NCBI GenBank assembly: GCA_964404725.1
Contig: CAYOLF010000060.1
Span: forward strand, 1 to 17,845
DNA: 17,845 bases
Direction: 5' to 3'
Source of the DNA: an uncultured Polyangiaceae bacterium
Lineage (GTDB): Bacteria; Myxococcota_A; Polyangia; Polyangiales; Polyangiaceae
Positions 1 to 5,428 of the stretch are shown here, one piece after another. Every line of letters starts with the position of its first letter. Within the stretch, counting starts at the first letter, position 1. The position numbers and the translations under genes are program-made. The notes under the pieces were generated by a model that did no database searches, was not told the DNA's origin, and saw only the letters and a program-made list of their open reading frames with translations.

Positions 1-2962
1 CGACCAACCGCAGCCCTACCGGCAACCCCTCGCCGAACCGCTCCGCGCGCTCCTTCGCGGCCACCGGCACGTGCTCGCGCACGGCGCGCACCCACTCGTC
101 CGGGGCTTTCACTTCCGTCAATCGCGAGGCGATCGTCGCGCGGAGGTTGGCGTTGACGTCGCGGGCGCGGTCGTCGGTGACGCGGGCGAGCTGGACGGCG
201 GCGGCGGCGGCGGTTGGCATCTCGGGCCACTTCTCGCGCAGGAGATGGTCCAGCCACCGCTCCACGGTGGACGGCGAGATCACGTGGTGCACGCTCGCGT
301 AGACGGGGACGCGGGCGCCGAGGCGGCCGATGGCGGCCCAGAGTCGGGGGTCGCGGCTCGTCCAGGTGCGTTCGAGCAGCCACCCGCCGAGCTCCGCGCG
401 GCGGGGCACGGGGACGCGCTCGAGCCAGGACGCGAGCTCGACGAGTTCGTCGGTGGCGAGCGGCGCGAAGCCCTTGGGCTTCTTGAGCTTGGACTCGGCT
501 GGAGCGAGGAAGGGGTCGAGCCGGTCACGCAGGGCGAGCTGCGTGCGCTCCTCGAGGCCGCCGACGATGCGGCGCCAGGCGATGAACAGCTGCTGCCAGC
601 CGCGGCTCTCCGCCGGGAACGTCAGGCCCTCGGCGAAGGTCGGGACCAGGACGGCGACGCGCTTGCCGTCCCGCGGATCCCCGAAGCCGGGGCGGAGGCA
701 GAAGCCGGCGAGCATCCAGAAGACCCGCTCGTGATCGGCCGAGCGGCGGCGGGCGCGGACGTTCGGGGCGAGGGCGTCGAAGAGGGCGCGCGCCGTCTCG
801 GTCGTCCACTCGCCGCGGTCTCCGAGCAGCTTCTCCAGCGTGCGCCAGAGATCCTTCGCCTCCCGCGGCTTGGCGTCGGCGCGGCCCTTGCCGAAGACCA
901 GGTCGATGGCGCCGAGCGCCTCCGCGAGGTTGCCGTGCGGCGCCCGCGGCGCCGTGCTCGCCCGGCGCACCCCCGGCGCCGCGCTCGGTCGCTGCTCACC
1001 CGGCGAATTGCTCGGCGCGCGCTCACCCGTCGCCGCGTCCCCCTCGGTCGCCGGCGCCGCCCGCAGGTCGAACGCGAGCCGGAAGCGCTGTCGCGCCGCC
1101 CCCTCGCCGCTGACGCACGCGAGCTCCAGCGTCCCCAGCGGCGTGAGCTCCCCCTCCAAGTGCACGCGCAGCTCCGCCGCGCTCGGCGGCGCCGACGTGC
1201 CACGCCTGCCCGCCCCCGGACCCGCTCCCGGACCCGCCCCCGGACCCGGACCCGCTCCCGCCCCCGGACCCGCTCCCGCCCCCGCATCCGCCGGAAACTC
1301 CGCCGTGACCGCCGGCAGCGCCACGAACCCCTCCGCCCCGAGCGGCACGATCTCCCCCGGAGCATGCGGGACCGCCGCGTCCCCCGAGTACACCTCGAAG
1401 CGCACGGGCTCGCCGACACGCAGGGCGAGCGGGTGGCGGCTGGCGACGTGGATCTCGCCCTCCTTTGCGCCCCGCGGCAGGACGCAGAGCAGGCGCCGGT
1501 CGCCGCGGCCGCGGCCCGCGTCGAGGGCGACGTAGAACGCGCTGGTCGCGCCGCCGCCGATGGTCGCGCCATGGCCGGCCAGGGCCAGGCCGTAGGCCAC
1601 CGCGCCGCGCGCGACGGCGAGCTCGGGATCCGTCACCGGCAGGAGCTCCACCGGGGCAGCGCTCCAGCCCGACACCGTGCGCGCGAGCCGCTCGGCGAGG
1701 CGCGGGGCCTGGAAGACGCCGCCGTTGAGCAGCAGCGCGGTGGGCCCGCCCGGGCGCGTCGCGGTCTCCGGCGGGATCGCGGCGTCCGGCGAGCGGTCGG
1801 CGCCGTCGTCGAGCGCCGCCGCGCTCCGCGCGAAGAAGGCCGCGAGGTGGCGGGTGATGGCGGGATCGCGCTCGTAGGGGAGCCCGAACGCGACCAGACC
1901 GCCGCGGATCCGGGCGGGGGTGGCGTCGAGCGGGACCACCGGGAAGAACCCCTCGACCACCAGCGCTTCGATCTCCTCGCGGACGAGCTCGGCGCTCAGC
2001 GTGCTGCCGACCAGGGCCGCGCCCGCGCTGGCGACCGCGAGGCGCGCCGTCGCCGGACCCGCGGGGTCGAGCAGCGCCTCCTTGGCGCCGCGGCAGGCGA
2101 GCACGAGGGCCGCGAAGCGGCGGGGATCGAGGTGCTGTCCGTCGGGCACCAGGCGTCGCTCGACGTGGTGCGCGATCGCCAGATCCATGTTGTCGCCGCC
2201 GAGGAGCAGGTGCCGGCCGACGGCGACGCGGCGCAGATCGAGCGCGCCCTGCGCGTCGAGCGTGGCGCGGATGAGCGTGAGATCCGTGGTGCCACCGCCG
2301 ACGTCGCAGACGAGCACCGACGCCCGGCCGCGGTCGCGGGCCAGGGCGGTGAGCGCCTCGACGCCGTGGCGCGCGAGGTAGTCGTAGAACGCGGCCTGCG
2401 GCTCCTCGAGCAGGCGCACCGACAGTCCCGCCTGGGCCGCGGCGCGCAGGGTGAGCTCGCGGGCGATGGGGTCGAACGACGCGGGGACGGTGAGGATCAC
2501 CTGCTGCCGCGCCAGCGGCGCGCCCGGGTGCTCCGCGTCCCAGGCGCTCCGCACGTGCTCGAGGACGCGCGCGCTCGCGGCCACTGGGGAGATCCGCGGC
2601 AGCGGATCCTCGGGATCGAGCCCCCAGGGCAGGATCGCGGCCGTGCGCTCGACGGCCGCGTGGGTGAGCCAGCTCTTGGCCGAGGTCACCGCGCGCCCCG
2701 GCACCTCGCGGCCGCGCTGGCGCGCGTGCTCGCCGACGATCCATGGCGGCGTGCCCCAGCGATCGACCGCAGGTTCGTCCCCGGTCGGTGCAAAGAGGCA
2801 AGAGGGCAAGAGCGCCCTCGGCTCCGCCGTGCGGGGCGAGACGAGCTGCGGGATCTGGAACACCTCGGGCGACGCCGGGGGCTCACCCGCAGTCGGCAGC
2901 GGGCAGGAGGCCACCACCGTGTGCGAGGTGCCGAGGTCGATGCCGACGACGCGCCTCGTCAC
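1..2962 (-). CDS. Long atypical Hsp70-family ATPase, 3'-partial (at least 987 aa visible): actin-like nucleotide-binding domain, beta-rich substrate-binding-like region, Gly/Pro/Ala linker, then a helical C-terminal extension of at least 330 aa
   Basis: Hand translation of the minus strand. The frame is codon-aligned with, and antisense to, the 71..3394+ shadow ORF. It is open from GTG 2962..2960 down to position 2; I found no TTA/CTA/TCA codon in that register. Motifs: VTRRVVGIDLGTSHTVVA (phosphate-1), SVLVCDVGGGTTDLTL (phosphate-2), LLLGGDNMDLAIA, ALLLNGGVFQAP (adenosine motif). A GAGG sits 6 nt upstream and overlaps the TGA of the upstream gene. The stop codon lies beyond the window, which would explain its absence from the ORF track. 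Confidence 0.85.
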   Translation of the reverse strand, partial: MTRRVVGIDLGTSHTVVASCPLPTAGEPPASPEVFQIPQLVSPRTAEPRALLPSCLFAPTGDEPAVDRWGTPPWIVGEHARQRGREVPGRAVTSAKSWLTHAAVERTAAILPWGLDPEDPLPRISPVAASARVLEHVRSAWDAEHPGAPLARQQVILTVPASFDPIARELTLRAAAQAGLSVRLLEEPQAAFYDYLARHGVEALTALARDRGRASVLVCDVGGGTTDLTLIRATLDAQGALDLRRVAVGRHLLLGGDNMDLAIAHHVERRLVPDGQHLDPRRFAALVLACRGAKEALLDPAGPATARLAVASAGAALVGSTLSAELVREEIEALVVEGFFPVVPLDATPARIRGGLVAFGLPYERDPAITRHLAAFFARSAAALDDGADRSPDAAIPPETATRPGGPTALLLNGGVFQAPRLAERLARTVSGWSAAPVELLPVTDPELAVARGAVAYGLALAGHGATIGGGATSAFYVALDAGRGRGDRRLLCVLPRGAKEGEIHVASRHPLALRVGEPVRFEVYSGDAAVPHAPGEIVPLGAEGFVALPAVTAEFPADAGAGAGPGAGAGPGPGAGPGAGPGAGRRGTSAPPSAAELRVHLEGELTPLGTLELACVSGEGAARQRFRLAFDLRAAPATEGDAATGERAPSNSPGEQRPSAAPGVRRASTAPRAPHGNLAEALGAIDLVFGKGRADAKPREAKDLWRTLEKLLGDRGEWTTETARALFDALAPNVRARRRSADHERVFWMLAGFCLRPGFGDPRDGKRVAVLVPTFAEGLTFPAESRGWQQLFIAWRRIVGGLEERTQLALRDRLDPFLAPAESKLKKPKGFAPLATDELVELASWLERVPVPRRAELGGWLLERTWTSRDPRLWAAIGRLGARVPVYASVHHVISPSTVERWLDHLLREKWPEMPTAAAAAVQLARVTDDRARDVNANLRATIASRLTEVKAPDEWVRAVREHVPVAAKERAERFGEGLPVGLRLV
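1209..1286 (-). repeat. 13 consecutive CCCGNN hexamers (plus strand) encoding a Gly-Ala/Gly-Pro dipeptide linker inside the long Hsp70 gene
   Basis: Plus-strand hexamers: cccgcc cccgga cccgct cccgga cccgcc cccgga cccgga cccgct cccgcc cccgga cccgct cccgcc cccgca. On the coding strand this reads about AGAGAGPGAGAGPGPGAGPGAGPGAG (aa 559-585 of the hand translation). Confidence 0.9.
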
Positions 2963-2970
2963 CGTCCCCC

Positions 2971-4794: not shown

Positions 4795-4861
4795 CGTCCG
4801 CCTCCGCGCTGGGGTTGGCGATTCAAGTGGGCGCCGCGCCCGGTCGCGGTGCGCGCGCGGC

Positions 4862-5428
4862 TCACAGCTCGACCTCCGCCGGCGCGAGGATCGTCGCGTC
4901 GCCGTCCCCCACGGGCCGCGGCAGCGAGACGCGCGTGGCGCGCCAGCCGCGGTGCCGGAGCACGCCACGGTACGGCGCCGAGCCCTTGACGGCGCCCGTG
5001 AGCTTGGCGCTCGCGGGGTCGAAGCCGGCCTCCAGGGTCACGGGCTCCCCCTCCGGCTCCGTCCGGATCGGCGCGAACTCGAGGTGGCCGCGCAGGGCTC
5101 GGCGGCAACCCTCGTGGATCACCCGGGCGGCGGCGCCGACGTCCGGGTCGCTGAACGCCGTGATGTCCTGCTGCAGGAAGTCCACGAGCCGCCCCTCGCG
5201 CTGGAGCAGGCCCAGGAGGACCAGCGCGGAGGTGGGATCGGGGGCGTCGGGGAGGGGCGCGGCGGCGGGCGGCGGCGGGAGGGGCTCGGCGGCAGCGGGC
5301 GCGGCGCCAGCGGGCGCGGCGGCGCGAGCGGCCAGGACGCGCGCCGCGAAGGCACCGTCGAGGAGGATGCGCAGCCACGCGACCCAGGCGAGCCAGAGGC
5401 GGGTGAGGAGGGGCACGGGCTCGGTCAC
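4862..5428 (-). CDS. DUF2760-like protein with a single N-terminal transmembrane helix (188 aa)
   Basis: Last 188 codons of track ORF 4862..6349-, starting at GTG 5428..5426. The N-terminal hydrophobic helix is LLTRLWLAWVAWLRILL, followed by a Pro/Ala linker. Then comes LLGLLQREGRLVDFLQQDITAFSDPDVGAAARVIHEGCRRAL...GVLRHRGW, which I recognise as the DUF2760 signature. The remaining upstream part of that ORF is Ser/Thr/Arg-rich antisense of the SDR gene. Confidence 0.75.
   Translation of the reverse strand: MTEPVPLLTRLWLAWVAWLRILLDGAFAARVLAARAAAPAGAAPAAAEPLPPPPAAAPLPDAPDPTSALVLLGLLQREGRLVDFLQQDITAFSDPDVGAAARVIHEGCRRALRGHLEFAPIRTEPEGEPVTLEAGFDPASAKLTGAVKGSAPYRGVLRHRGWRATRVSLPRPVGDGDATILAPAEVEL

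Follow-up and report, generated by a model that had tools for sequence, protein, structure and literature searches.

The action of Hsp70 proteins is normally explained by the DnaK-DnaJ-GrpE cycle. This system and its bacterial relatives HscA-HscB and HscC-DjlC have in common the ASKHA/Hsp70 fold of the nucleotide-binding domain (NBD), its motifs with a catalytic lysine and glutamate, and a beta domain following the NBD. In the eukaryotic pairs Hsp110-Hsp70 and RAC (lidless Ssz1 with Zuo1) together with Ssb, two proteins of the Hsp70 family are paired, one of them lidless, and a stable non-Hsp70 partner has a segment able to occupy the beta domain. The myxobacterial stk locus consists of stkA (Hsp70-like, 540 amino acids), stkB (SCP2-like, 141 amino acids) and stkC (PhaE-like, 89 amino acids) (PMC4319316). 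Bacterial DnaK derivatives in general are described as unexplored in a 2026 review, which proposes Hsp110-like co-chaperone roles for them (PMC13580251). Here we analyse a module of three genes in a stretch of 17,845 nucleotides from an uncultured Polyangiaceae bacterium (assembly GCA_964404725.1, contig CAYOLF010000060.1, positions 1 to 17,845 of the forward strand), hereafter the window. Gene A encodes a DUF2760 protein, and genes B and C encode a short and a long Hsp70 paralogue.

The module shares with the canonical DnaK systems the NBD fold, motifs and catalytic residues and the position of the beta domain. It departs from them in that B and C form a separate clade and lack the lid, the VLLL linker and conserved residues for contact with a J-domain, and in that two paralogues stand together with no linked J-protein or GrpE gene, although J-proteins may be encoded elsewhere in the genome. 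The module can be likened to the Hsp110 and RAC pairs by analogy only: both bacterial paralogues have intact ATPase motifs, the partner is a DUF2760 protein rather than a J-protein, and there is no link to ribosomes. Ssz1 is nevertheless among the structural matches of C, and the comparison of bacterial DnaK derivatives with eukaryotic atypical Hsp70s has also been drawn in the review (PMC13580251). Another reference point is the NBD-only YegD of Escherichia coli, equally distant from DnaK and without a linked J-protein; unlike B and C, it has no beta domain, and the neighbours of its gene encode a kinase, a phosphatase and a vWA-domain protein rather than DUF2760. The first-pass annotation had named the stk locus as similar in composition. 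Likeness is limited to a myxobacterial operon with an Hsp70 homologue and small gaps, in which StkA leads and is not heat-inducible. We rejected the analogy: stkA is followed by the SCP2-like and PhaE-like genes (PMC4319316), where the order here is DUF2760-B-C, and the stk locus has a single Hsp70 and neither DUF2760 nor DUF3731. The Myxococcus xanthus counterpart of our third gene is instead MXAN_5323, discussed below.

The three-gene operon is conserved across several bacterial phyla. It is a mobile cassette with two uncharacterised domains, and neither its mechanism nor the operon as a system has been described. We put at about even the chance that it is a self-contained, horizontally transferable operon building a non-canonical Hsp70 machine that is independent of J-proteins and has DUF2760 as its third subunit. 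What was already known amounts to database entries as DUFs or 'Hsp70 family protein' and the knockout of one orthologue. The module thus offers a well-delimited entry to the poorly studied non-canonical bacterial Hsp70s. Solving it would show how an Hsp70 ATPase is controlled without a J-domain and would give a function to DUF2760 and DUF3731; if the bolder version of the proposal set out below is true, prokaryotes would have evolved, independently, an equivalent of the eukaryotic Hsp110 and RAC arrangements. With MXAN_5323, M. xanthus provides a tractable genetic system that is already at hand, and members of the Burkholderia cepacia complex carry the module too.

The operon and its conservation

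The G+C content of the window is about 75%, and most open reading frames (ORFs) in six-frame translation are therefore spurious. Third-position GC and stop-to-stop translation identify A, B and C as three real genes, all on the minus strand and all with GTG start codons. Gene A (4862..5428, 188 amino acids) and gene B (2971..4794, 607 amino acids) are given with their stop codons. Gene C (2..2962), which encodes the long paralogue with DUF3731, lies at the edge of the window, where its final three codons and stop are cut off, so that 987 of 990 residues are present. The full length of 990 amino acids, with the C-terminus LRLVEGQ before the stop, was obtained from a second contig of the same organism (L087), whose A and B proteins are identical to those of the window; the exact B protein is also present on other contigs. 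On L087, gene C is followed by a 262-nt gap and then a convergent gene, so the operon comprises exactly three genes. The spacer between A and B is 67 nt long (4795..4861, minus strand), and a GGAGG precedes the start codon of B by 8 nt. That between B and C is only 8 nt (2963..2970, minus strand), with the Shine-Dalgarno sequence GAGGGGGA overlapping the B stop; the junction reads CTGAGGGGGACGGTG, and its GAGG overlaps the TGA stop codon. The coordinates and junctions thus confirm the earlier picture of three tightly packed, co-directional genes with an overlap of ribosome-binding site and stop codon.

A DUF2760 profile scan with one genome per species confirmed at least 580 DUF2760 loci in the species-representative genomes scanned, and the best 80 of the 580 were analysed. 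These 80 loci come from Myxococcota, Oxalobacteraceae and other Burkholderiales, Competibacter, Chromatiales and Azoarcus. Neighbours were counted by tblastn with the window proteins, and a locus was admitted only if it had a flank of at least 2.2 kb for B and at least 5.6 kb for C. DUF2760 is immediately followed by a B-type Hsp70 in 72 of the 73 loci from other genomes, an arrangement therefore far beyond chance. The second Hsp70, with DUF3731, is found in 51 of 64 loci (47 tightly packed, two with an insertion and two on the other strand). This survey upholds the treatment of the three genes as one module in the first-pass annotation. All-against-all clustering of ORFs revealed no fourth conserved gene among the 80 loci: other families, which are generic Ser/Thr kinases and GGDEF proteins, occur in at most 16 of them. 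A J-domain is encoded near the module in only two of the 80, in both cases outside the operon. These are Competibacter loci (L021 at about 8035-9267 and L031 at 3306-3452), where an ORF whose product has a C-terminal J-domain with the HPD motif terminates some 0.7 kb upstream of DUF2760, with an opposite-strand response regulator between that ORF and the operon. In the window itself, tblastn detected no match to a J-domain or HscB, and a Pfam scan of the 13 other large ORFs found no DnaJ, GrpE or HscB (no sequence search was aimed at GrpE), which agrees with the initial statement that dnaJ, grpE and hscB are missing from the window.

The whole cassette is also carried by the conjugative Bradyrhizobium barranii plasmid pCC829_3 (L086, 8306-14155), where it lies beside trbE-trbI; a gene for a MarR-family regulator is situated just upstream of it. 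DUF2760 is present on replicons of the Burkholderia cepacia complex as well, and a scan of 2.9 million viral contigs turned up no relative. At E <= 1e-30, the B/C family comprises about 1,285 clusters at 50% identity from a search of 1.84 billion representative proteins, and its lengths are bimodal, with peaks at about 600 and 930 amino acids. Among B-like proteins of unusual length, no extra fused domains were found. There are two independent fusions of B followed by C (P0123, 1499 amino acids, on a 281-kb contig; P0125, 1536 amino acids, on a 119-kb contig), the halves of which align over their full length to B and C of the window.

Architecture of the three proteins

Both paralogues match the HSP70 profile PF00012, B over residues 7-343 only (E 1.1e-17) and C with E 1.2e-12, and the best match of B in the PDB is the DnaK NBD (E 8e-14). 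The NBD of B spans approximately residues 1-456 (3427..4794, minus strand); that of C, delimited from the AlphaFold2 (AF2) model, catalytic motifs and Foldseek matches to DnaK and BiP, covers residues 1-461 (1580..2962, minus strand). Aligned to E. coli DnaK, both retain the equivalents of D8, K70 (in SAKSW), E171 (in EEPQAA), D194, T199 and D201. Both also possess the full set of features that define the NBD of the Hsp70 superfamily, that is, phosphate-1 (DxGT), phosphate-2 (DxGGGTxD), the adenosine motifs and the catalytic Lys70 and Glu171, so the reported retention of nucleotide-binding motifs in both paralogues holds. Among the orthologues, most motifs recur in 68 or more of the 71 B sequences and in 47 or more of the 53 C sequences. 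Lower counts were obtained for phosphate-1 in C (42/53), GLPY in B (66/71) and the RIxGG linker in C (29/53). The low count of phosphate-1 in C is probably an artefact of N-terminal trimming. The first-pass annotation had further listed sequence blocks shared by the two paralogues and foreign to DnaK; every one of these is present in both except GTL.LE, which belongs to B only and reads GTLELA in C.

Residues R167, N170 and T173 of DnaK are contact residues for the J-domain. In B and C alike they are replaced by Leu, Glu and Gln, respectively. The hydrophobic interdomain linker VLLLD is absent as well, and a family-specific segment G-x-RIRGGTARAYYVG (RIRGG) takes its place. No EEVD tail is found in B or C. 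NCBIfam holds no specific model for A, B or C; the best scores, to HscA and DnaK, do not exceed 84 bits, where the cut-offs stand at 620-820.

Beyond the NBD the two paralogues differ in length. B has a beta-rich C-terminal domain at approximately residues 464-607 (2974..3405, minus strand), and because its whole length aligns with residues 2-634 of C, it stops after this domain and has no lid. In C, the position of the canonical lid is occupied by a 40-residue disordered linker (residues 636-675, 938..1057, minus strand; pLDDT below 50 and no predicted secondary structure), and then by an all-alpha domain of about 15 helices (residues 676-987, 2..937, minus strand; modelled helices at 676-985). 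This domain contains a full-length match to PF12531 (DUF3731, "DNA-K related protein"; 261 bits, E 1.9e-77, residues 741-986, profile positions 1-248 of 248). The description of both proteins as lidless thus stands insofar as neither has the canonical lid or EEVD; C is not short, however, and its helical DUF3731 domain had been overlooked. Comparison of DUF3731 with the PDB gave no meaningful sequence match, and a low-threshold Pfam scan returned no informative weak matches for DUF3731 or the beta domain.

The AF2 model of C (mean pLDDT 71.6) contains the NBD, the beta domain, the disordered linker and the helical domain in succession. Nine strands are modelled in the beta domain (residues 475-631, 1070..1540, minus strand), which occupies the place of the substrate-binding domain (SBD) in Hsp70s. 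In a Foldseek search of the PDB, the top 50 matches of the C model are all SBD-containing Hsp70s with targets of at least 493 residues, including DnaK in the ATP state (4b9q, 5nro), BiP (5e84) and Ssz1 of RAC (6sr6). A contribution of the beta domain to these matches is suggested by the absence of NBD-only entries from the top 50, and on the strength of the model this domain is likely an Hsp70 SBD.

Two further observations concern the C gene and its closest orthologue (L002). A low-complexity (GA/GP)n insert in the beta domain of the window protein (residues 564-594, 1181..1273, minus strand; pLDDT below 50) makes up much of the difference in length between it and this orthologue (990 versus 953 amino acids). 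At 15950-16886 of L002, about 1 kb downstream of the C orthologue, lies a 517-bp copy (98.8% nucleotide identity) of the last 170 codons of that gene; this copy reflects either a genuine duplication of part of the gene or an error of assembly.

B and C share 45.6% identity over 568 aligned columns, compared with 22-27% identity to E. coli DnaK, HscA, HscC and YegD. In a distance-based neighbour-joining tree with 100 bootstraps, for which these four E. coli proteins were the only references, B and C form a joint clade with a support of 100/100, outside the DnaK+HscA+HscC group (100), in line with their initial classification as non-canonical. Within the joint clade B is supported at 94; C, at 19, is paraphyletic. 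The subtrees of B and C have the same taxon groupings, and the pair has therefore evolved as a unit. Taken by their sequences, B and C are paralogues of ancient origin that make up a separate clade, keep the ATPase residues and lack the lid, linker and J-contact features. A putative physical partnership of the two has indirect support in the 8-nt gap, the co-occurrence of the genes, the matching tree groupings and the two fusions.

The product of gene A is a full-length match to PF10816 (164 bits, E 1.5e-48, profile positions 2-124 of 124), a family with at least 2982 homologues. In its AF2 model (pLDDT 78), two N-terminal helices are joined by a Pro/Ala linker to three helices packed on a five-stranded sheet, and the chain ends in a disordered tail. 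The N-terminal pair (residues 7-37, 5318..5410, minus strand; modelled helices 7-22 and 25-37) is hydrophobic or amphipathic, follows the pattern TRLWxAWxxxxRxLxDGxFA and includes a near-invariant R10. The variable linker (residues 38-64, 5237..5317, minus strand) corresponds to gapped alignment columns of varying length and has no modelled secondary structure. The DUF2760 domain itself (residues 65-187, 4868..5236, minus strand) comprises the three helices and the sheet. Its fold search of the PDB yielded nothing below E 0.7, and its sequence-profile search of the PDB no meaningful match.

Conservation of this domain is pronounced. In 82 sequences from four classes, Q76, R80, D83, F84, D94, R102, H105, C108, E126, H159, G161 and W162, together with A184, E185 and E187 of the tail, are at least 95% conserved, and nearly all of these positions are kept in 81-82 of the 82. 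The constellation of His and Cys (H105, C108, H159) may form a site for metal binding or redox chemistry. The C-terminal tail APAEVEL (residues 182-188, 4865..4885, minus strand) is predicted to be disordered (pLDDT below 50 at 178-188), and its A184, E185 and E187 are still kept in 81-82 of 82 sequences, those from Alpha- and Betaproteobacteria included; an invariant segment of this kind looks like a docking peptide. The first-pass annotation had assigned the protein one transmembrane helix and a membrane tether. The N-terminus is not a classical transmembrane helix in this lineage, given its conserved Arg, Lys and Asp residues, short uncharged run and hydropathy of about 1.5. Its role as a membrane anchor is still plausible from the sequence comparison, for a Bradyrhizobium homologue has two clear transmembrane helices in the same position.

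Proposed mechanism and rival explanations

What could such a module do? The relevant literature that we found is confined to Pan et al. 2021 (PMC8265645) and the 2026 review (PMC13580251). DUF2760 and DUF3731 are named in no paper of the full-text literature searched, and the Mayer 2021 review makes no mention of Myxococcus, StkA or YegD. No established mechanism for the combination was found in this literature, as the first-pass annotation had supposed. The most direct evidence on function comes from M. xanthus. MXAN_5323 (925 amino acids, 'Hsp70 family protein') is, on three lines of sequence evidence, the orthologue of C in this species, because a C orthologue of the same length occurs in a DUF2760-B-C operon (L079), that protein shares a 90%-identity cluster with ABF92794.1 of M. 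xanthus DK1622, and the published MXAN_5323 deletion primer corresponds to the 15 bases immediately before the ATG of the L079 C gene. MXAN_5323 is of the same length class as C, carries DUF3731 and is about 45% identical to C of the window; its two upstream neighbours, presumed to be MXAN_5321 and MXAN_5322, probably correspond to DUF2760 and B. It was studied as a single gene, with no mention of the operon, DUF2760 or DUF3731 (PMC8265645). The gene is induced by heat and H2O2 and upregulated in development. Its deletion reduced sporulation, slowed recovery from H2O2 and left growth, motility and swarming, predation and fruiting-body formation unchanged (PMC8265645). According to the abstract of the same study, E. 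coli dnaK was rescued by two canonical DnaKs only, and MXAN_5323 is not among them (PMC8265645).

In the mechanism that we propose, B and C would form a heteromeric pair comparable to Hsp70-Hsp110 or Ssb-Ssz1 and would work without DnaJ or GrpE. C carries the helical DUF3731 domain on a disordered tether in place of a lid. The DUF2760 protein would be the dedicated third subunit, whose hydrophobic N-terminus might hold the complex at or near the membrane, while the DUF2760 domain and the APAEVEL tail might dock onto the lidless beta domain or DUF3731. Once docked, DUF2760 could act as an adaptor, a regulator or a built-in pseudo-substrate. The physiological role of the complex would be accessory stress tolerance rather than essential housekeeping folding, in keeping with the stress induction of MXAN_5323 and the effects of its deletion on sporulation and H2O2 recovery (PMC8265645). 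A bolder version of this proposal envisages an undescribed class of bacterial Hsp70 machine without J-protein or GrpE, in which the two active lidless paralogues cross-regulate each other through an NBD-NBD heterodimer and DUF2760, with its new fold and His/Cys site, serves as a membrane-proximal adaptor whose tail plugs the beta domain or DUF3731, possibly in a redox-dependent manner. We regard this specific scenario as speculative and rather unlikely to hold as a whole.

Several observations weigh against the reading of the operon as a three-subunit, J-independent machine. No C gene is present within 10 kb in 13 of the 64 loci, and the trio is therefore not obligatory at one locus; the loci without C have no consistent replacement gene. 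Both B-C fusions originate from metagenome assemblies and are possible artefacts of sequencing or gene calling. The assignment of the beta domain rests on a medium-confidence model (pLDDT 71.6), and neither Pfam nor hhalign revealed similarity between the beta domains of B and C and the SBD-beta of DnaK, HscA or HscC. In the N-terminal segment of DUF2760 the longest uncharged run is nine residues, and the Kyte-Doolittle hydropathy, averaged over 19 residues, peaks at about 1.5. Finally, the sporulation and H2O2 phenotypes of the MXAN_5323 deletion define no specific role for the protein, since they are mild and common to deletions of unrelated Hsp70 genes.

The main rival explanation holds that B and C are Hsp110-like nucleotide-exchange or disaggregation co-chaperones of the housekeeping DnaK, acting through NBD-NBD contacts, and that DUF2760 only localises them. 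Exactly this role has been proposed for NBD-containing DnaK derivatives, which occur only in genomes with a canonical DnaK (PMC13580251). The induction of MXAN_5323 by heat and oxidative stress and the lack of a J-protein or GrpE linked to the module are in keeping with such a service function. The complete ATPase motifs and the beta domain retained in both paralogues argue otherwise, as do the travel of the cassette with its own partner, even on a plasmid, and the B-C fusions, which point to each other rather than to DnaK. We consider this explanation unlikely. The first-pass annotation had itself favoured a signalling or regulatory ATPase over a folding chaperone, and an StkA-like control of exopolysaccharide or surface behaviour has in its favour that StkA is an Hsp70-like negative regulator of exopolysaccharide (PMC4319316) and that the window encodes Ser/Thr kinases and a response regulator at a distance of no more than 3-6 kb. 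These kinases are not conserved neighbours of the module, though, and the stk locus differs from it in composition, lacking DUF2760 and a second Hsp70. The unaltered swarming, predation and fruiting-body formation of the MXAN_5323 mutant (PMC8265645) and the occurrence of the module in non-social Beta- and Gammaproteobacteria further disfavour a signalling role, which we judge improbable. Nothing in this analysis tips the choice from folding towards signalling.

The patchy phyletic distribution and the copy on a conjugative plasmid beside trb genes could also bring to mind a conflict system directed against phages or plasmids or acting by abortive infection, with the Hsp70-type ATPases as sensors or switches. 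PADLOC indeed reports weak matches to the candidate PDC-M61B (E 7e-5 for B and 2e-3 for C), but they span only about 100 residues of the NBD, and DUF2760 is without a match. None of A, B and C has a detectable effector domain of the nuclease, TIR, pore or protease type; the neighbourhood in the window is metabolic and regulatory rather than a defence island; the viral contigs contain no relative; and the B and C trees, with their shared groupings, broadly track taxonomy. A conflict function is accordingly quite improbable. Of the ASKHA superfamily at large, one might think of actin- or MreB-like filament formers, to which the sub- or near-threshold Pfam MreB_Mbl scores (31 bits for B and 21 bits for C) would correspond. 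The HSP70 profile outscores MreB_Mbl in both, the Hsp70-specific equivalents of Lys70 and Glu171 are present, and the best structural matches are Hsp70s including the SBD; filament formation therefore appears very improbable indeed.

Upstream region and neighbouring genes

The intergenic region upstream of A (5429..5570, minus strand), common to A and a divergent SDR gene, is the presumed location of the operon promoter; on L087 the corresponding gap is 142 nt. It contains the sequence TTGCCG-17 nt-TAGACT at 5441-5469 (minus strand), which ends 7 nt before the GTG of DUF2760, with no Shine-Dalgarno sequence visible. The DUF2760 transcript could be leaderless or nearly so. A consensus promoter scan did not call this element, and promoter and terminator scans of the window were uninformative in DNA of 75% GC.

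A Pfam scan of the 13 other large ORFs assigned the remaining window genes to SDR, GH5 cellulase, NAD-kinase-like, NUDIX, NIF3 and glycosyltransferase families. On its flanks the region has genes for two Ser/Thr kinases of the eukaryotic type and for a stand-alone response regulator (8268-9923 and 9993-10508 on the minus strand, 16480-17844 on the plus strand); they are typical of myxobacteria and are not conserved neighbours of the module. A DUF3419 protein (PF11899, which we take to be a BtaA-like family) is encoded at 12154-13452 on the plus strand, directly followed by an S-adenosylmethionine-dependent methyltransferase at 13529-14161 on the same strand, and this pair resembles btaA/btaB of betaine-lipid synthesis.

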